In this document: in pieces, positions 8,808-16,623 of the stretch
Numbering within the stretch: position 1 is the first letter of the stretch
Layout of the letters: each line of letters begins with the position of its first letter
Source: Escherichia phage HY126
DNA length: 64,000 nucleotides
Direction: 5' to 3' (one strand)
Sequence record: PP658200.1
Program-made: the position numbers and the translations under genes
Notes under the pieces: model-generated
The model's database searches: none
What the model saw: only the letters and a program-made list of their open reading frames with translations
Told to the model about the DNA's origin: nothing

Positions 8808-9972
8808 CGAAATCTTCCATTTCGTCAAGGTCGTTTTCTATATCTGCTGCAGACGGAGCATCAGAAGTTTTAACCGGAACTTTAGTTGTTGCTTTGCAAT
8901 TAATAAGGTCGTTAACAGCGTCATCAACTTCTTTAATAGAAGAGATAGCACCTAGTTTATATTTAGTTTCAATTGCATCTCGGAAAGGTTTGTGTTTAAA
9001 CAACGGTCCCCAGAATTCTACACAATCAGTAGCTTTAGCACGCCATGATTTTTCTTCACGAATCATTTCGCCTGTTTCTTCGTCAAGGAATTCTCGAGCA
9101 TACCACCCGGCTTTAGGCTTAACTACAAAACCGATTTCAGTTGCCATTTCTAACAAGCCACTGAATGGGTCAATACCGCCATCAAAATTAACCGTGATCG
9201 GGAAAGTAGATTTCTCTTTAACTGTACGAGATTTTTCTGCTTTCAACGTGAAGTCATAACCGGTCAATTCTGTACCTTCTTTAACCTGACGTTTAGAGAT
9301 AAAAAATACCGTGTTGGCAGAATAAAGAATACCTGTACCACCGCCCATAATCTCTTTAGGATATAGTCCGCCGATTTCCATTGCTGTATGGTTAATTGCA
9401 ACACACGGAATATCTTTAATAGTCAGATACGGGGTCACAATACGGAAAAGAGATTTAAGTGCCTTAGCACGAGACATATCACCTACGACTTTCTCGTTCA
9501 ACGCATCTTCGGTTTCTTTCTTAGATGCAGTATTACCGATTGAATCGATAAAGATAATAACTTTATCACCGCGTTCAATCGCGTCAAGCTGATTAGTCAT
9601 ATCAACTTTAAGTTGTTCGACAGATTGAATCGGAGTATGAACTACACGGTCTAAATCAACACCCATTGAACGAAAATAAGATTCTGAAGCACCAAATTCT
9701 GAATCATAGAACAAACAAATTGCATCTTTATATTTCTTCATATATGCTGCAACCATGGTCAGTCCAAACAACGTTTTAAAGTGTTTAGAAGGAGCAGCAA
9801 AAATAGTTAAGCCTGATTGCAACCCAGCATTCAGTGCACCACCTAATGCAATATTCAACATCGGAATACGAGTAGGGACTTCATCGCGATTATTAAACAA
9901 CTTAGACTTAGTCAAGTCTGCAGTCATTTTAGAAGTAGAAGCTTTAATCAGACGAGATTTTAAATCAGACAT
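8800..9972 (-). CDS. uvsX: recombinase UvsX (RecA-like)
   Basis: 390 aa; RecA-fold motifs and overall match to T4 UvsX as recalled. Confidence 0.95.
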   Translation of the reverse strand: MSDLKSRLIKASTSKMTADLTKSKLFNNRDEVPTRIPMLNIALGGALNAGLQSGLTIFAAPSKHFKTLFGLTMVAAYMKKYKDAICLFYDSEFGASESYFRSMGVDLDRVVHTPIQSVEQLKVDMTNQLDAIERGDKVIIFIDSIGNTASKKETEDALNEKVVGDMSRAKALKSLFRIVTPYLTIKDIPCVAINHTAMEIGGLYPKEIMGGGTGILYSANTVFFISKRQVKEGTELTGYDFTLKAEKSRTVKEKSTFPITVNFDGGIDPFSGLLEMATEIGFVVKPKAGWYAREFLDEETGEMIREEKSWRAKATDCVEFWGPLFKHKPFRDAIETKYKLGAISSIKEVDDAVNDLINCKATTKVPVKTSDAPSAADIENDLDEMEDFDE

Positions 9973-10071
9973 TGTATTTTTCCATAGGCATCATTATATT
10001 TTACTCATGTTTAAAAGATAAGACGATTATATACTAAGGGTTATACAGCATTTAAAACTTTAAACAGGCTC

Positions 10072-10620
10072 TTAACGAGCCCATTTGATAATTTCTGTAA
10101 TCAAATTATTACGTTCGCTTGCATTAAATCCTATAACTTTGTTAGCACCATCATGATTAAGTAATTGATACGTTTGGATTTCGTTATGAATTGCAAACTC
10201 TTCAAAATATGAAATGACTGTATTAAAACCGAACGAAGACAAAGTAATAAGGTCGTCTTCAAAACTTTCAGTCATTTCGTTACGTGTTAAAATAATTGTG
10301 AACACATCATGGTTTTGGCAAAGACGAACATAATCCTGTTCATAAACGTCAAGAACCGAGTCCGCATCTTGTCGAATACGTCCATAAACCCAGTTACTAA
10401 TATATCCACGGTCTAACAGATAAATCTTAGTAGGGTCTAAATAATTCAACATCGTTTCGAAACAGCCAACTTCATTTCGAGACTTAACATCGAAACGTCC
10501 ATCAACTGTTCGTTTAGGGAAATCAATCTTTACATATCTTTCACTAATTTCCATTATGTCATTAATGAAAGTTGTTTTACCAGCATTATCCGGGCCATCT
10601 ACTAAAATAATTTTAGCCAT
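10072..10620 (-). CDS. P-loop nucleoside/nucleotide kinase-like protein
   Basis: 182 aa; Walker A VDGPDNAGKTT and LLDRGYISNWVYG (DRxY lid-like) suggest dNK/dTMP-kinase fold; not present at this position in T4. Confidence 0.7.
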   Translation of the reverse strand: MAKIILVDGPDNAGKTTFINDIMEISERYVKIDFPKRTVDGRFDVKSRNEVGCFETMLNYLDPTKIYLLDRGYISNWVYGRIRQDADSVLDVYEQDYVRLCQNHDVFTIILTRNEMTESFEDDLITLSSFGFNTVISYFEEFAIHNEIQTYQLLNHDGANKVIGFNASERNNLITEIIKWAR

Positions 10621-10621
10621 T

Positions 10622-11521
10622 TTATTCCTCGATTACGACATCTTCATATTTAGGTATATTATACGGCGAAGAAATTAAAGCATTAAAGTAGATGAACTCG
10701 CCAAGACCTGGATGGAATACTTCTTCAGGATTTTCGAAATATTGAATCTTCGGACGTCCTTTAAGAATTTGATAGTACTCAGTTTTAGTTGGTTTAAAAA
10801 TTCGAATCAACGCTTCTTCAGGATACTTATTTCTGTCGAAGCTATTATTTGGATCGGTTATATAAAGCGGTTGGCCTAATTGAATTGCACATTCAACCAC
10901 TTGTTCAAAACGATAGCACGGGTCACTAATTCGAAATGGATGAAAAATACCATCTAGATGAATAGGAGCCAAATCACCTACAAGACGCTGCATGATGGAA
11001 GGACGTATAACTTTCTGCGTTACGATAATCTTATTACCATCTGCACCTGCGTTAACCAGCACTTCTTTTTGACGTTCATTCAACACAGTAGTTTGAAGTG
11101 AACGATTAACCGACAACATATCAGTTTTTAAGAATTCGTCAATATAAAAACGTGGTTTATTAGGGTCTGCAGTGATATTGAAATTGAATTCCACATCAAA
11201 AGTGCCGGCATATCCGGTGATATCTGTGATTAGAAAATCACAATCATAATAAGCAATTAATGAATCAACCACAAATTCATTTTCAGACCAGAAATATTTA
11301 CGAGTGTTATACGCGTTATCTTTATACCATAATGGAACAAACTTAAATTCTGGAAAAAGACGTTCGCATTCTTTAATATCAGATGCATTACGTGGATATG
11401 TAATCACATCACCCGGATTAGCACGGTGCAAATGAAGTTGGAAGTTGCCATCCTTAAGGATAGCATACTGTCCAGTTTCATAAGACCGCATACTCAAGAT
11501 AGGTACGCGGAAAATAGCCAT
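10622..11521 (-). CDS. hypothetical protein in the beta-glucosyltransferase syntenic position
   Basis: 299 aa between uvsX and 42, where T4 carries beta-gt; no resemblance to T4 beta-gt noticed; ATGA-coupled to gene 42. Confidence 0.65.
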   Translation of the reverse strand: MAIFRVPILSMRSYETGQYAILKDGNFQLHLHRANPGDVITYPRNASDIKECERLFPEFKFVPLWYKDNAYNTRKYFWSENEFVVDSLIAYYDCDFLITDITGYAGTFDVEFNFNITADPNKPRFYIDEFLKTDMLSVNRSLQTTVLNERQKEVLVNAGADGNKIIVTQKVIRPSIMQRLVGDLAPIHLDGIFHPFRISDPCYRFEQVVECAIQLGQPLYITDPNNSFDRNKYPEEALIRIFKPTKTEYYQILKGRPKIQYFENPEEVFHPGLGEFIYFNALISSPYNIPKYEDVVIEE

Positions 11522-12237
11522 TAGTCAAGGAATCCTTTAACATAATCAAAATCACGTTCAAACACATGGGCACTTACCATGGTATGAGTATAATCACCAA
11601 CTTCTACACCACATTCGTTAGCGATATAATGAAGTAATTTTCCTTGGAGATAAAAATCCAACTGCATAACAACAGCACAGTTCTGAGAACGCATATGACA
11701 GTGGGTATAAAGCTTACCATCACGAATATAATAAGTCACTGAGTCAGTACATGGATATTCAAGCGTTTCGTCTGAATCAAGCAAAGCCTGATCGGAACTT
11801 TCTAGAATTTGGAACACAACTCTTCGGGAGTTAGGCTTCTCTTTAAGTTCTTTTAGAAGAGCTGGTAATTGGGCCGCAATGCGAGGACCATAGAAAGTGT
11901 TGAAGTTTGCAGGCAAAGCGTCTGATTTAGGTTTAGAAATAAATTTAGCGACGTTAGGATATGCCTTAAATGCTTCTTTTGCATCAGTACCACCAGAAAT
12001 CATAAATTTCCAGAAATCTTCAGCATATTCATAAGAGATGCGATTAATACGTGGGTCGGTCATTTTGAATGATGAAGGGGTATCAACAACTACTGTCATA
12101 GACCCAATTTCATTACAACGTCCAATACGAGAATCAGTAACGAACTGTGGATTTTCTAAAATTTCACGATTGACAGCTTTAAATGCGGATTGAAAATCTG
12201 CGGCTTTAATATATTTCATTGTGTTATGTTTTCCCAT
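11521..12237 (-). CDS. 42: dCMP hydroxymethylase gp42 (thymidylate-synthase fold)
   Basis: 238 aa; TS-family core (…RRVVFQIL…PCTDSVTYYIRDGKL…MRSQN…QLDFY…); synteny with T4 gene 42. Confidence 0.85.
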   Translation of the reverse strand: MGKHNTMKYIKAADFQSAFKAVNREILENPQFVTDSRIGRCNEIGSMTVVVDTPSSFKMTDPRINRISYEYAEDFWKFMISGGTDAKEAFKAYPNVAKFISKPKSDALPANFNTFYGPRIAAQLPALLKELKEKPNSRRVVFQILESSDQALLDSDETLEYPCTDSVTYYIRDGKLYTHCHMRSQNCAVVMQLDFYLQGKLLHYIANECGVEVGDYTHTMVSAHVFERDFDYVKGFLD

Positions 12238-12255
12238 GTTTACCTCAATACAGTT

Positions 12256-12281
12256 ATTATATACTCAATTCATAAAGCTTA
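12256..12281 (-). promoter_or_regulatory. possible middle-type promoter for gene 42
   Basis: Minus strand TAAGCTTTA (MotA-box-like, one mismatch) - 11 nt - TATAAT; SD GAGGT follows. Confidence 0.35.
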
Positions 12282-12420
12282 TTTGAATTTCTTAGCGATG
12301 TTGATATAACGTAAAGCTTCAGCATCGATACTTCCAAGAACACTATGAAGAAATGCATCAGCATAGTATTCTAGTTGAACAGGTTTCTTTAATCACTTTA
12401 AGCCGCTTTGGTTTCAAACA

Positions 12421-12439
12421 GGCCCATAAGGGCCTTTTT
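12421..12439 (+). terminator. plus-strand intrinsic terminator in the 42 / U32 intergenic gap
   Basis: GGCCC-AUAA-GGGCC hairpin followed by U5 on plus strand; on minus strand the A-run precedes the hairpin. Confidence 0.5.
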
Positions 12440-12516
12440 AAGAATTTGTTCGTTGCTGTTAATTTTCATAGTCAAAATCTCTTCATTAAGTTGGTGGTTA
12501 AAAGTTTTTCTAGAAA

Positions 12517-13677
12517 TCATTCTGGGTACCTCAAAGCGTCGTCAGAGTTAGTTATATCAATAATAGATATAGAGTTTTCTGATAACCCATTTTTAGATAA
12601 TTGACGTTTATAATATCTTTCACAATATGTACACGTCGTCCCACAGATTTCATTAGCACAATCGAAATCTGGATGTCTGAACCACCTTTTTTCTAAAAAG
12701 CCATCTAACAAAGAGGTTTCAATATTTACCGTATGTGAAAACTCGGTCTCATTTTCAAGAGTGAAAATGGTCTCTAAAGGCTTCCACAATTCCAACAAAT
12801 TACCTTCAAATTTTTCGGAAGCATAAGCTTCAAGAACTTTCAAAATGTAGTCTGTGCTACCTGTACGTCCTGAAACTTTGAATTGAGTGATACCAATATC
12901 ATTATAAAGTTTCAAATCTTGAGGACGAACAAAACGAGTTCTCAACCAGTTAAATGGATCTGTATCACGAGCTTTAATGCAGTGTTGCATTGGATATCCA
13001 TTTAAGGATTTAGCATCATCAGCGGTAACATCAGTACTATGGAAAATATAGCAAGAGTCACGATAGCTACAATGTGTTGTATACCCTTTACCAGCATTAG
13101 AACAGAACTCATTTACAAGAACTTCAAATATTATATTGTTCTTATTGCAAAACTCTGCTGCACGCTTCAGGAAAGAAACCGAACGGTTCTTATGAATTCC
13201 ACAGCAGACCTTTTTGATATTATACTGGTCATGCAAGTATTTGATTTGAGTTACAGCATCGACATGTAGAATTGTTGAAACTTCAATCTCAATGTCTTTA
13301 TTGACTTCACGAACAATTTCCATAACAACAGGGTTAGCGATAGTAATACGCCATACGCCTATTGACCAAAGATACTGAACATAATCCTGAATAGCTTTCT
13401 TCTTCCACTCAACTAGTTCTCTTTTTGAACCAGGATTTATCGTGTTGAGTGTATAGTTAAAGCAAATACCTAATTCGTTACAACGTTTAACGTAATCTTC
13501 TAACATCTTTTTGTCAACGTCAGGAAGCCTAAAATCAGGTCTGGCTGCTACAAAAGCCATTTCTCTTGTAGAGCCGTATACTTCATTTATCAAGCTATTA
13601 GGATAAGTTTTATTGAGCTCTACGATTTTATCAAGAAGAGCTAAATCAAAATTCGTTCCGATTTTAAAAGTATTCAT
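12517..13677 (-). CDS. peptidase-U32-family-like protein (TIM-barrel, Cys-rich; possible Fe-S enzyme)
   Basis: 386 aa; N-terminal …EVYGSTREMAFVAAR… and …EVLVNEFCSNAG…C… resemble U32 signature regions; many C-terminal Cys; assignment from motif memory only. Confidence 0.65.
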   Translation of the reverse strand: MNTFKIGTNFDLALLDKIVELNKTYPNSLINEVYGSTREMAFVAARPDFRLPDVDKKMLEDYVKRCNELGICFNYTLNTINPGSKRELVEWKKKAIQDYVQYLWSIGVWRITIANPVVMEIVREVNKDIEIEVSTILHVDAVTQIKYLHDQYNIKKVCCGIHKNRSVSFLKRAAEFCNKNNIIFEVLVNEFCSNAGKGYTTHCSYRDSCYIFHSTDVTADDAKSLNGYPMQHCIKARDTDPFNWLRTRFVRPQDLKLYNDIGITQFKVSGRTGSTDYILKVLEAYASEKFEGNLLELWKPLETIFTLENETEFSHTVNIETSLLDGFLEKRWFRHPDFDCANEICGTTCTYCERYYKRQLSKNGLSENSISIIDITNSDDALRYPE

Positions 13678-13731
13678 TTTTACATCTCGCGTTAATTGAT
13701 GCGATGGTTTTTGCAGGTCTTACTTAAATTA

Positions 13732-14133
13732 TTATAGATTCGGTTTATATGATTTAAATGTTTCGAATTCGCCTTTATTCATAAGAGCTTTGAATTCGTC
13801 AGGACGCATAGCTTTGTCGTCGATAATCCAATCATATACTGGTTTATGTGTTAGCAAATTATGGTACTTCAAGCCAATGTTTGCCAAGTTCTGAATCAGA
13901 CTTGGGAGAATGTCAATTGCTATACGACCAGGACCTACTGACTTCATACCGCGAGCAGTGTAAAGCGTTATTGTATGCCCTGCATCATACAGGGCATTAA
14001 TGGCAGACACCATTTCGACGTCTGGTTTGAAGTTCACGTAATCACGATTGTTATTCCACTCGGTTATACAATCATCGACATCAAAACAAAGATTAAGCAT
14101 GTTTTCTACACGGTGCATTAGATTCGTTCCCAT
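13732..14133 (-). CDS. HAD-superfamily phosphatase (minimal, capless)
   Basis: 133 aa; motif I FDVDDCIT, conserved T (TLYTARG), K, and motif IV IIDDKA. Confidence 0.65.
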   Translation of the reverse strand: MGTNLMHRVENMLNLCFDVDDCITEWNNNRDYVNFKPDVEMVSAINALYDAGHTITLYTARGMKSVGPGRIAIDILPSLIQNLANIGLKYHNLLTHKPVYDWIIDDKAMRPDEFKALMNKGEFETFKSYKPNL

Positions 14134-15806
14134 TGATGAGTGATATCGCCACCGATTGGACGATAGGAAACACCAGTTTCTTTATCAGTTAGTACCCATT
14201 TACCAGGATTTTTTGTAATCAGAGTAGCCGTTACAGGTTCTGCTACGTCATAACTAATAGAGCCGTCCTGAAGTACACGGCCCATGTTACGTAATTGCTT
14301 AGTCAGAAGTTCCATACCTTTATAATATGCGGCTACCGCTTTAAGTGGATTATTCTTGAAATAACCACCTAATGCAATCCAGATAATTGCCACTGCCAAA
14401 TGATGATACTCGTTAAACGAACTCATCTTTCCATATTTGTAAACTAATGGATTGATGTTAATAGACACATTACAAGTTGTTTCATCAATAGTAAACTGTC
14501 CCCAAGTCGGATTAGCGTTGAATTCATCATAACCTGAAACAGCGTAAAGCACTTTAGCTTCATCATACAATTTTGGCCCATAAATCTTGGTTTCACCAAA
14601 ATATCCACGAGGGTCGATAAACTTGACTTCACAATTATCAGTAATCATAGTATTACTGAAGTTCGGGTCGCCATGAATAACAGAGTACTGTCCCTGAGAA
14701 CGGTTATGATAACGAATAAGGTGTTCTAAAGCTTGTTTCAACATTGGCTTCAGACGCCCAATCTTAGTGTAGTTCACATGTGTTATTTTACCAAATGAAT
14801 CAATCAATGGTTGAATACTTTCACAACGATCAATAACTTTAGTATAGAATTCTTTAGTGAAATCACGACGAACAGTTTCAGGACTTACAAAATAAGTGTC
14901 TGTGCTGAATTTCAGTGCATCTAAAATTGCATCAACAATTTGTGGACGAGCAAGACTTGATTTGGATTTAATATATTCAAATGCTGGCTTACCTTTAATA
15001 CGTTCCATAATAAAGTGGCCGCCAGGATGATAACTTACAATCCGTGGAACTGAATCTGATTTAACTTTCTTATACCAATTGACTTCATCTTTTTGAAGTG
15101 CAACGCCCTGTTCTGTTAAAGCAATCTTTGTTACCGTTTCTTCGCCAATTTCAACTGCATTAAAACTACGATTAAGTTCACGAACTTCATGAGCTTTTTC
15201 AAGTTTAGGCATATCACCAAGGTCGATGATATTCATAAGCTCTGATTTATTGAATGCGCTGCCGTAAAGGAATTCTACGAAATCACGTCCTTTGCAGTAT
15301 TCATGAATTTCCTCATCAGTAGAACCCATATAGAATTCCCAGTCTTTGAACTGATAAATTCCTACAACATTACCACCTGTTGAACCTACATTAGTGATAT
15401 TTTCACCGTCGAAATTATATCGACATTCGTCACCCTTAACATAGATTGCGTTAACATTCCAAGACCACGAACCAAAATCAGGAATAATATCACACCAGTT
15501 AACAATTACATTATGGCCGTCTAAATCTTTGTGCAATTTAGCAAGAGCATAAGCAGAACCATACGCTTCATCAACTGTACGAATAGTCACATTGAACCCT
15601 TCTTGCTCACAATAAGCTCGAACAGTTTCAGCAAATTTTGAATGAACTACTACAATAATTTCATCTGCGCCAAGGTCAGAATAAATTGTATACAAATTGC
15701 TCAGAATAGTGTCTTGTTTATAGTTAACAAGCACCTTAGGAATATGATGCGTTATTGGATACAAACGAGTTGCCAGTCCAGCACCAAGAATAACAGCTTT
15801 TTTCAT
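14118..15806 (-). CDS. bifunctional sugar-1-phosphate nucleotidyltransferase / APH-like sugar kinase
   Basis: 562 aa; N-terminus ILGAGLATRLYPIT..PKVLV (NDP-sugar pyrophosphorylase signature); C-terminus HGDPNFSN…FIDPRG (aminoglycoside/choline-kinase-like catalytic loop). Confidence 0.75.
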   Translation of the reverse strand: MKKAVILGAGLATRLYPITHHIPKVLVNYKQDTILSNLYTIYSDLGADEIIVVVHSKFAETVRAYCEQEGFNVTIRTVDEAYGSAYALAKLHKDLDGHNVIVNWCDIIPDFGSWSWNVNAIYVKGDECRYNFDGENITNVGSTGGNVVGIYQFKDWEFYMGSTDEEIHEYCKGRDFVEFLYGSAFNKSELMNIIDLGDMPKLEKAHEVRELNRSFNAVEIGEETVTKIALTEQGVALQKDEVNWYKKVKSDSVPRIVSYHPGGHFIMERIKGKPAFEYIKSKSSLARPQIVDAILDALKFSTDTYFVSPETVRRDFTKEFYTKVIDRCESIQPLIDSFGKITHVNYTKIGRLKPMLKQALEHLIRYHNRSQGQYSVIHGDPNFSNTMITDNCEVKFIDPRGYFGETKIYGPKLYDEAKVLYAVSGYDEFNANPTWGQFTIDETTCNVSININPLVYKYGKMSSFNEYHHLAVAIIWIALGGYFKNNPLKAVAAYYKGMELLTKQLRNMGRVLQDGSISYDVAEPVTATLITKNPGKWVLTDKETGVSYRPIGGDITHQWERI

Positions 15807-15847
15807 GTTGTGGTCCTCATTGGTAAGTAGGAGTATTGTACACTATT

Positions 15848-15991
15848 CTAGTTAAAGCATTCATACTTTGCTTGTAGTCCAATCATAATCCATCCGATTA
15901 TAAGAGTCGGAATCATTACTGGAGCCGTTAAGCTCCAGTAGATAGTCATGACAAGCATCAATAGTAAAAGTCCTATTGTTATTGCTTTCAT
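15848..15991 (-). CDS. small hydrophobic membrane protein (47 aa, below track cutoff)
   Basis: Translated by eye (MKAITIGLLLLMLVMTIYWSLTAPVMIPTLIIGWIMIGLQAKYECFN); ATGA overlap with stop of SIS isomerase gene. Confidence 0.35.
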   Translation of the reverse strand: MKAITIGLLLLMLVMTIYWSLTAPVMIPTLIIGWIMIGLQAKYECFN

Positions 15992-16623
15992 TGTTCGCCT
16001 CGTAACATGGCACCTAGTGCACCGCCAGGGTGGAACTTAAGGAAGTCATTAGAGGTAAATCCACGTTCAGACGAAAGGTTGATAGCAAACGTATCGATAA
16101 GCGCTAACAACAATGTAGTGGACATAGTCGGAGCCAGAGAATTCTCATCAACCTCTACTGCGATGCCTGTACAGAACGTATAATCAAAAAGAGCTTCGTA
16201 TTCTTGTGGAATGTCCGGGTTACAATGCAACAGAATCTGTTTGACGTTCGGACGAATCATTTTAAGATGCTTAGCCACGCCTATCATTTCTTCAGTTTTA
16301 CCAGAACGACTAATATGAATCAACACATCATTAGGCGCAATGAATCCTGCATCACCGTGAGAATAATGCCCAGTGTTCAAGTACATACTCGGGATACCGA
16401 GTGAAGCAAATGTCTCAGAAGCTTTAGTTGCAATATTAGCATTCTTACCAACACCTGTAATAATTACTCGGCTTTCATAATTACTAAGTCCTGGGCGTCG
16501 AAGAGTTTCTAGAATAGCATTATAACGAGCAGGGTTTTGACTAATTACTTTGGCCATAGCGGCCAAAGAAGAAGCTTGTTTTATGATTGCGTCAATAGCG
16601 ATAGTAATAGGAGTAGTTTTCAT
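15988..16623 (-). CDS. SIS-domain sugar-phosphate isomerase, KdsD/GutQ-like (arabinose-5-phosphate isomerase)
   Basis: 211 aa; GVGKNANIATKASETFASLGIPS, ISRSGKTEE, LAPTMSTT and FHPGGALG match the SIS domain of A5P isomerases; no CBS domains. Confidence 0.8.
   Translation of the reverse strand: MKTTPITIAIDAIIKQASSLAAMAKVISQNPARYNAILETLRRPGLSNYESRVIITGVGKNANIATKASETFASLGIPSMYLNTGHYSHGDAGFIAPNDVLIHISRSGKTEEMIGVAKHLKMIRPNVKQILLHCNPDIPQEYEALFDYTFCTGIAVEVDENSLAPTMSTTLLLALIDTFAINLSSERGFTSNDFLKFHPGGALGAMLRGEQ

Follow-up and report, generated by a model that had tools for sequence, protein, structure and literature searches.

The DNA of phage RB69 contains arabinosylated 5-hydroxycytosine rather than hydroxymethylcytosine, and cytosine is fully replaced in its virion DNA (Lee et al., Nucleic Acids Res 2026, PMC13326640). 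In the published pathway, gp48, a thymidylate-synthase homolog, is a flavin-associated synthase of 5-hydroxy-deoxycytidine monophosphate (5-hydroxy-dCMP) whose oxygen derives from 18O2; gp55, gp52:53 and gp51 make uridine diphosphate (UDP)-arabinofuranose from ribulose-5-phosphate; gp46:47 is the first arabinosyltransferase and gp45 a nucleotide kinase (PMC13326640). A further gene, RB69p050, is tabulated only, as a "sugar or heterocycle reductase" with the structural match 5D88 (PMC13326640, Table 1); it is left undiscussed, and U32 proteins, prephenate, chorismate and anaerobiosis are absent from that text in this context. Acinetobacter phage DLP3 makes an arabinosyl-5-hydroxycytosine-type base without a U32 gene (PMC13326640). 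Here we analyze the RB69p050 ortholog of Escherichia phage HY126 (sequence record PP658200.1), a U32-family open reading frame (ORF) in a stretch of 64,000 nucleotides, the whole of which we call the window.

Several U32 oxidases have been characterized. RlhA makes 5-hydroxycytidine at C2501 of 23S ribosomal RNA (rRNA) and needs Fe-S biogenesis as well as prephenate from the chorismate mutase domains of PheA and TyrA, prephenate being genetically required (PMC5727448), as it also is for TrhP (PMC11574389). TrhP and TrhO provide O2-independent and O2-dependent routes, respectively, to 5-hydroxyuridine at position 34 of transfer RNA (tRNA) (PMC6599085). For UbiU-UbiV, isotope labelling identified prephenate as the oxygen donor (PMC10990095). 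UbiU and UbiV each hold a [4Fe-4S] cluster on four cysteines, and CX6CX15CX3/4C is the arrangement of the four cluster-binding cysteines in U32 oxidases (PMC6747719). The sole solved U32 structure, 5D88, is a (beta/alpha)8 barrel.

The HY126 ORF probably encodes an O2-independent, prephenate-dependent cytosine C5 hydroxylase that serves the 5-hydroxycytosine of the phage DNA, a reading to which we assign a probability of roughly 0.58. From sequence and gene neighborhood we infer that a stand-alone Fe-S U32 'oxidase' would hydroxylate cytosine at C5 without O2 and would take the oxygen atom from prephenate. Its substrate would most likely be free dCMP, and less likely cytosine already in DNA; action on dCMP is probable because kinases and pool-editing enzymes travel with the gene and because a nucleic-acid-binding extension is absent from the protein. 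The product, 5-hydroxydeoxycytidine, would be the acceptor on which glycosyltransferases build arabinosyl-5-hydroxycytosine DNA, and the enzyme would offer a second, anaerobic route beside the first route through the O2/flavin 5-hydroxy-dCMP synthase.

12517..13677, minus strand: candidate U32-family Fe-S protein (RB69p050 ortholog), recognized by its ORF, PF01136 match, identity to RB69p050, fold model and cysteines

The ORF starts with ATG and encodes 386 amino acids (aa). It is a real, conserved gene: 385 of its 386 residues are the same as in RB69p050, proteins at least 99% identical to it occur in 151 phage records, and PHROG 5757 covers it end to end (E 6e-267). The original prediction, made from the letters of the window, had assigned this ORF to the U32 family on the strength of two strings, INEVYGSTREMAFVAARPDF near the N-terminus and EVLVNEFCSNAGKGYTTHC centrally, and of a Cys-rich C-terminal half. 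Both strings are present and many cysteines do lie in that half, and the assignment itself was borne out by a profile search in which PF01136 (Peptidase_U32) matched residues 94-286 (E 7.3e-11; 42.2 bits, above the curated gathering cut-off of 22.4). Structure prediction agreed. The AlphaFold2 model, built with 22 homologs (predicted local distance difference test 87.7, predicted template modelling score 0.88), alternates strands and helices in the (beta/alpha)8 barrel of the U32 superfamily, and its top solved structure in Foldseek is 5D88 (E 1.1e-7, TM 0.69 on the target); the remaining matches are weaker and fall on generic TIM barrels, aldolases and glycosidases among them. A sequence search of the PDB gave no match at E up to 1, and no DUF3656, Peptidase_U32_C or second Pfam domain was detected in the protein at E up to 0.1. 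The absence of an RNA-binding extension fits a small-molecule substrate. Scans for promoters and terminators were uninformative, promoter-like sites being fewer than in shuffled sequence.

The strongest argument for a prephenate-dependent oxidase, indirect but weighty, is the repeated, independent linkage of the U32 gene to genes that make prephenate. Prephenate is the product of chorismate mutase, and DAHP synthase opens the shikimate pathway. In a tblastn search of the phage collection, ORFs bearing a chorismate mutase annotation adjoined the U32 gene. In Enterobacter phage Entb_45, the U32 gene and the gp48 homolog flank a 79-aa ORF, which shares 4 nt with each of them and matches CM_2 (PF01817; E 2.4e-10, 40.9 bits against a cut-off of 27). 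To place such cases in context, 62 loci were fetched (12 species genomes, 44 from IMG/VR, plus contigs encoding selected homologs), and their ORFs were called and clustered. Iterative searching of these loci located chorismate mutase directly after the U32 gene in 13 of the 15 from Straboviridae. Twelve positions are invariant among the phage chorismate mutases (R8, D15, L21, R25, I32, G33, K36, N45, K52, L53, S71 and Q75), five of which probably correspond to catalytic residues of the E. coli enzyme. Across 50,697 phage records chorismate mutase occurs in 51, inside the U32/modification cluster in every case among the matches listed.

The same association recurs in unrelated uncultured phages. 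Stand-alone chorismate mutase genes stand beside the U32 gene in four loci (L007, L012, L013, L050), and in others (L010, L044, L046-L048) the domain forms the C-terminus of a neighboring protein of 320-351 aa. Relatives of the DAHP synthase part, 248-261 aa long and lacking the chorismate mutase domain, are encoded in L004 and L033 and, by clustering only, in L018. Among the proteins scanned (L004, L010, L033, L047, L048), DAHP synthase models scored 114-237 bits as against 30-63 for KDO8P synthase models, and by these scores both size classes are B. subtilis-type (type I-beta) DAHP synthases. A Kdo pathway, considered for those loci where PF00793 genes have SIS and KdsC-like neighbors, was rejected because the DAHP scores are far above the KDO8P scores and several of the proteins carry a chorismate mutase domain. 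Representative genes are as follows.

L004 10145-10891: DAHP synthase, alone
L033 9384-10130: DAHP synthase, alone
L010 8931-9959: DAHP synthase fused to chorismate mutase

At least 12 unrelated loci thus have chorismate mutase, DAHP synthase or a fusion of both beside the U32 gene, and, judged from this arrangement, these enzymes are more likely to supply a co-substrate than to act as auxiliary genes of amino-acid synthesis. In the window, the slot that chorismate mutase occupies in other genera is taken by a homolog of RB69p049, which is unrelated to chorismate mutase; the idea that RB69p049 is a divergent chorismate mutase was rejected when hhalign against the phage chorismate mutase profile returned a probability of 0.07%. 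A tblastn search of the window's 280-bp gap after the U32 gene found no chorismate mutase remnant. Prephenate in this Mosigvirus would come from host PheA/TyrA, because a phage chorismate mutase is absent.

Linkage to base-modification genes is similarly widespread. The window's cluster proteins were used as queries against the loci, with 10 kb on each side of the U32 gene covered in the 47 that lie outside Straboviridae. Homologs of the gp46:47 glycosyltransferase, which share the motif IPIxSMRSYETGxY..DGN, occur within 4.6 kb of the U32 gene in 26 of the 47 and abut or overlap it in nine. A thymidylate-kinase-like gene homologous to gp45 is near it in 27, an AfhE-like gene is present in 15 and an SIS isomerase gene in 12. 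Genes of dUTPase_2, dUTPase/dCTP-deaminase, dCMP deaminase and uracil-DNA glycosylase (UDG) type are frequent, and NT5C, deoxynucleoside kinase and dCTPase-type genes also travel with the U32 gene. No gp48-type synthase was found in this range in any of the 47 loci. A jackhmmer profile spanning canonical ThyA and gp48-type proteins recovered a single ThyA-family gene, at 5509-6360 of L035 (a 230-kb phage contig), 3.6 kb upstream of the U32 gene; it is a canonical ThyA with the dUMP-type Asn and Asp.

One gene order, dUTPase_2, kinase, glycosyltransferase, U32 and DNA polymerase III alpha, recurs in L006, L036, L040, L045, L049 and L057, which are phage contigs of roughly 41-49 kb, and has no sugar-activation genes. 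Here nucleotide-pool editing, kinase and transferase, the other roles of a T4-type scheme, are all represented, and the U32 protein would be the base-modifying enzyme, because its gene is the only conserved one left for that role. These loci bear on the idea, implicit in the label of Lee et al., that the protein is a sugar-pathway enzyme altering the pentose or the nucleotide-sugar before transfer. In the window the gene does have the phosphatase gene on one side and the base genes on the other; among uncultured phages, many have it as the last gene of an operon with SIS isomerase, AfhE-like and HAD phosphatase genes; and the TIM-barrel fold also matches aldolases and glycosidases weakly. Yet this gene order dispenses with the sugar genes, DLP3 and JS10 hold the same sugar genes without U32, and a sugar role leaves unexplained why genes for chorismate mutase and DAHP synthase recur beside U32. 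Moreover, we know of no U32 enzyme that acts on sugars. The steps from ribulose-5-phosphate to UDP-arabinofuranose are already fully assigned to gp55, gp52:53 and gp51, the HY126 homologs of which were tested biochemically (PMC13326640). We consider a sugar role improbable. The original prediction had proposed a role in 'base or sugar' modification; the first half is favored, and the second is not, as the sugar pathway is assigned elsewhere and some U32 loci have no sugar-activation genes.

A different cassette precedes the U32 gene in L002, L003, L008, L014-L017 and L055, which come from bins of Tannerella, Phocaeicola, BRC1, Woesearchaeota and others. It comprises a GP88-like gene (PF17338), a class I S-adenosylmethionine (SAM) methyltransferase of 414-443 aa, and a 265-aa protein with a faint DNA-glycosylase-like match, followed by U32. 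The methyltransferase was not recognizable as CmoA or CmoB and appears to be a generic class I enzyme. Judging by its gene content, the cassette may be a hydroxylate-then-methylate system of base modification. Next to it in L002, the region 9116-15428 encodes a 5'(3')-deoxyribonucleotidase, a PnuC-type transporter, a deoxynucleoside kinase, an AlaX-like protein and a radical SAM/SPASM enzyme. A nucleoside deoxyribosyltransferase-like gene is also there, as is the gene for a second U32-like protein of 377 aa, which is divergent and whose PF01136 score falls just short of the cut-off. The region looks like an island of deoxynucleoside salvage or modification. L001 and L058, too, have a radical SAM/SPASM gene in the vicinity of U32. 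At 7447-9086 of L001, a 466-kb phage-like contig, a dCMP deaminase gene immediately precedes the U32 gene, which is also near genes for DNA polymerase III alpha, a UDG-like protein and thymidylate kinase; dCMP deaminase adjoins the U32 gene in L056 as well. The substrate in the L001 lineage might be dUMP, giving 5-hydroxyuracil, rather than dCMP.

Whether hydroxylation precedes or follows DNA synthesis is a separate question. The same prephenate-dependent C5 hydroxylation could be post-replicative, on cytosine in DNA rather than on dCMP. The characterized nucleic-acid U32 oxidases all modify polymers (PMC5727448, PMC11574389), the closest E. coli relative of the phage protein is one of these, RlhA, and the GP88 cassette, with its faintly DNA-glycosylase-like 265-aa member, can be read in the same sense. 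Against this, when cytosine is replaced completely in virion DNA, this normally happens at the level of the nucleotides; the phage protein has no C-terminal extension like those of RlhA and TrhP, and the U32 gene accompanies nucleotide kinases, dUTPase/dCTPase-type genes, dCMP deaminase, NT5C and deoxynucleoside kinase. Modification of DNA is thus an unlikely alternative, though one with some weight, and hydroxylation of free dCMP is preferred.

The phage U32 proteins form a distinct, medium-sized subfamily, not part of the U32 mainstream, and are mostly phage-borne, often from the microbiomes of anaerobes. A word-indexed protein search returned 268 homologs, those of other Straboviridae genera (in Pectobacterium, Enterobacter, Yersinia, Proteus, Providencia and Shewanella phages) being 76-87% identical, and hundreds of metagenomic homologs of ~360 aa are 45-58% identical. 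Scanned with HMMER, 1.84 billion cluster representatives yielded 450 clusters at E<=1e-30, 1114 at 1e-10 and 1647 at 1e-3. Conservation is unusually high, with a mean column identity of 59% across 22 diverse members, many invariant Arg and Lys residues, and ten invariant cysteines (C158, C177, C192, C203, C209, C233, C340, C345, C349 and C352).

We compared the family profile with the four U32 oxidases of E. coli MG1655, each as a single sequence. RlhA was the best match (E 1.9e-5; the 204 aligned columns take in the Cys region), followed by TrhP (E 0.0066, N-terminal part only), UbiU (E 0.0094) and UbiV (E 0.09). In a joint alignment with these four, C203, C209 and C233 line up with Fe-S cysteines one to three, and a K-x-x-G-R motif is common to the phage and E. 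coli proteins. The phage family additionally has an 11-residue insert with the extra invariant cysteine C192 and a C-terminal CX4CX3CX2C group; C192, C158 or C177 could serve as a substitute cluster ligand. None of the described subfamilies accommodates the HY126 protein. It scores 18.5 bits against the NCBIfam UbiU equivalog NF047963 (cut-off 440), and neither a second U32 gene nor an SCP2 gene, as expected of a UbiV/UbiT partner, was found in the cluster. Compared with RlhA it lacks DUF3656, is 386 rather than 653 aa long and is ~19% identical; compared with TrhP it lacks Peptidase_U32_C and matches the N-terminal part only. On sequence grounds it is a U32 superfamily member outside every characterized subfamily, because the C-terminal extensions of RlhA and TrhP are absent and the UbiU score is far below the cut-off. 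The O2-independent hydroxylation and base modification raised in the original prediction are in keeping with RlhA as best match and with the two sets of linkages, to chorismate mutase and DAHP synthase and to glycosyltransferases and kinases of the 5-hydroxycytosine type.

The resemblance to RlhA and TrhP could also mean that the phage protein hydroxylates host or phage RNA, at tRNA U34 or sites like rRNA C2501, to tune translation, and that its position in the cluster is due to chance. T4-like phages carry their own tRNAs. The U32 enzymes characterized as pyrimidine hydroxylases all act on RNA and require prephenate (PMC11574389, PMC5727448). The adjacency to glycosyltransferase, nucleotide kinase and polymerase genes is, however, kept in phage lineages that are unrelated; an RNA-binding extension is missing from the protein, and the host already has both RlhA and TrhP (MG1655). 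We regard an RNA substrate as quite improbable. That the protein is a genuine collagenase-like peptidase, as database names ('peptidase', 'collagenase-like protease') in most GenBank records would have it, is scarcely credible: nothing but those names speaks for it, the family name is historical and its characterized members are Fe-S hydroxylases (PMC11574389, PMC6747719), and a peptidase fits neither the ten invariant cysteines nor the context of nucleotide metabolism.

In the window, the U32 gene belongs to a complete arabinosyl-5-hydroxycytosine cluster of the RB69/DLP3/HY126 type at 10072-16623, in which the genes checked are 99% identical to those of RB69. Many RB69-like coliphages of the genus Mosigvirus match the region as a whole at 97-98.5% identity. 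The other members of the cluster are:

10072..10620, minus strand: thymidylate-kinase-like P-loop protein, RB69 gp45 ortholog (phrog_761)
10622..11521, minus strand: DNA glycosyltransferase, RB69 gp46:47 ortholog, arabinosyltransferase 1 on 5-hydroxycytosine (PHROG and homology)
11521..12237, minus strand: O2/flavin 5-hydroxy-dCMP synthase, a thymidylate-synthase homolog, RB69 gp48 ortholog (PF00303, E 2.4e-15)
12281..12520, minus strand: remnant of an RB69p049 homolog (two 1-nt insertions, 40-aa ORF left)
13732..14133, minus strand: HAD-type phosphatase, RB69 gp51/AfhF-like, a step of UDP-arabinose synthesis (phrog_1238)
14118..15806, minus strand: bifunctional nucleotidyltransferase/kinase, RB69 gp52:53/AfhE-like, UDP-arabinose synthesis (PF00483, E 9.6e-10, and weak kinase-family matches)
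15988..16623, minus strand: SIS-domain arabinose-5-phosphate isomerase, RB69 gp55 ortholog (PF01380, E 1.7e-10; phrog_5670)

The original prediction had taken the downstream neighbor for gene 42, dCMP hydroxymethylase. This identification has to be replaced: the gene, 280 bp downstream of the U32 gene, is the ortholog of RB69 gp48, with 235 of 238 residues identical (99%). The base in the DNA is accordingly 5-hydroxycytosine and not hydroxymethylcytosine, because the neighbor is a 5-hydroxy-dCMP synthase. The glycosyltransferase (10622-11521, 299 aa) and the AfhE-like enzyme (14118-15806, 562 aa) are single intact ORFs in the window, which supports the published claim that the split annotation in RB69 (p046/p047 and p052/p053) is a sequencing artefact. 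The RB69p049 homolog is 79 aa long in RB69 and phiE142 (phrog_8601), and HY126 keeps a 40-aa ORF at 12398-12520; the broken gene is either a pseudogene or the result of homopolymer sequencing errors.

The distribution of the U32 gene fits an O2-independent alternative on which phages of anaerobes rely entirely and which phages of facultative anaerobes keep in reserve. Among cultured phages it occurs in 221 records, the ten commonest host genera all belonging to Enterobacterales, and also in Shewanella phages. U32 matches from genome bins are nearly all of strict anaerobes or anoxic habitats (Erysipelotrichales, Oscillospiraceae, Romboutsia, Gastranaerophilaceae, Tannerella, Phocaeicola, Clostridium, Woesearchaeota). 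The gp48-type synthase occurs in 373 records, 57 of them Acinetobacter and 20 Rhizobium phages. Acinetobacter clusters that were examined here or are published (Lazarus, DLP3) have no U32 gene, and Lazarus has no chorismate mutase. Phage JS10 (L067) and Acinetobacter phage Lazarus (L068) both have the whole arabinosyl-5-hydroxycytosine cluster with neither gene; the stretch from the phosphatase gene to the ThyA homolog is contiguous in Lazarus and interrupted in JS10 by the kinase gene alone. Within Straboviridae, U32 and chorismate mutase thus behave as an insertable accessory pair.

A number of observations weigh against a prephenate-dependent dCMP hydroxylase. The gene is missing from DLP3, Lazarus and the coliphage JS10 (Dhakavirus), and its absence is not confined to phages of aerobes, because JS10 infects E. 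coli. Phage phylogeny is a confounder in the contrast between Acinetobacter and Enterobacterales phages. The window's own lineage has no chorismate mutase, and the many U32 genes that end sugar-activation operons allow a sugar role. The match to RlhA, a profile against a single sequence, is weak (probability 78%), and the canonical cysteine motif is kept in part, as C203-X5-C209-X23-C233, its fourth cysteine having no aligned counterpart. The search for synthases reached 10 kb on either side of the U32 gene, and a ThyA-like synthase may lie elsewhere in the genomes of the uncultured phages. We know of no in vitro reconstitution of a U32 oxidase, and of no U32 oxidase that acts on a deoxynucleotide or on DNA. 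In air, U32 is dispensable for the pathway, gp48 and the kinase sufficing in E. coli (PMC13326640).

The gene is not a new object, being annotated in hundreds of genomes and tabulated in the 2026 paper, and U32 oxidases are an enzyme kind already known. A literature search linking phage DNA modification to U32, prephenate or chorismate mutase returned nothing relevant, with incomplete coverage of the relevant papers from 2025-2026, and the Thanatos paper offers no hypothesis for the origin of the hydroxyl. By the literature available, what appears to be new is the assignment to DNA hypermodification, the dedicated supply of prephenate, how widely the family occurs in uncultured phages, and the idea of dual aerobic and anaerobic routes. 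A broader proposal, which we advance tentatively and hold to be possible though somewhat short of even odds, is that this is the first U32/prephenate hydroxylase to act on a free deoxynucleotide (dCMP to 5-hydroxy-dCMP), and that its gene is the signature of a large, previously unrecognized class of 5-hydroxypyrimidine DNA hypermodification in phages of strict anaerobes, where it would replace the O2-dependent ThyA-like enzyme.

The 5-hydroxycytosine route reported in 2026 needs O2, yet these phages prey on often anoxic gut bacteria and destroy the normal dCTP pool. A second enzyme that works without O2 would, if confirmed, explain how they replicate in the absence of oxygen. The pairing of an aerobic with an anaerobic enzyme, already the rule for ribonucleotide reduction, ubiquinone and tRNA, would then reach the hypermodification of viral DNA. 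The phage DAHP synthase and chorismate mutase would gain a rationale in co-substrate supply, not amino-acid synthesis. The known U32 substrates are ribosomes, tRNAs and lipids; a soluble, commercially available nucleotide substrate, if that is what the enzyme uses, would allow U32 reconstitution in vitro and make the chemistry, and with it oxygen donation by prephenate, directly testable. The family could also mark hypermodified genomes that resist restriction and CRISPR, which is of relevance to phage therapy and to sequencing-based viromics.

Among the four E. coli U32 oxidases, the nearest in sequence is RlhA (YdcP), which shares the U32 domain and a local C-Y-I-x-H motif with the phage protein and whose product base is likewise the proposed 5-hydroxycytosine. 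RlhA differs in being 653 aa long with DUF3656 and in modifying one residue of a ribosomal precursor, whereas the 386-aa phage protein presumably acts on a deoxynucleotide or DNA. A counterpart in proposed function is the gp48 group (gp48, DLP3 gp80 and the HY126 homolog), for which the U32 protein would yield the same product in the same pathway and which, in HY126, is encoded 280 bp from the U32 gene. The two have unrelated folds, gp48 relies on flavin and O2, and its function is known from experiment where that of the U32 protein is proposed from sequence and context. Aerobic and anaerobic ribonucleotide reductases, NrdAB and NrdDG, occur together in T4-like phages. They resemble the proposed pair in placing an O2-dependent and an O2-independent enzyme at one essential nucleotide step, and differ in chemistry and protein families; nrdD is mentioned in RB69 (PMC13390438). 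UbiU-UbiV are U32 proteins that use the oxygen of prephenate and back up the O2-requiring flavin monooxygenases UbiIHF, but they form a heterodimer, work with the lipid-binding UbiT and have a lipid substrate, whereas the phage U32 gene is single. TrhP (YegQ) and TrhO follow the logic proposed here: a U32/prephenate enzyme and an O2 enzyme of unrelated fold make one 5-hydroxypyrimidine over the whole range of O2 (PMC6599085). There the substrate is RNA, TrhP carries Peptidase_U32_C and is of marginal similarity to the phage protein, and TrhO is rhodanese-like rather than a thymidylate-synthase homolog. Both of these E. coli pairs, TrhO/TrhP for tRNA and UbiIHF/UbiUV for ubiquinone, set an O2-dependent hydroxylase beside a U32/prephenate one, in parallel with the arrangement we propose for gp48 and the U32 protein in phage DNA.

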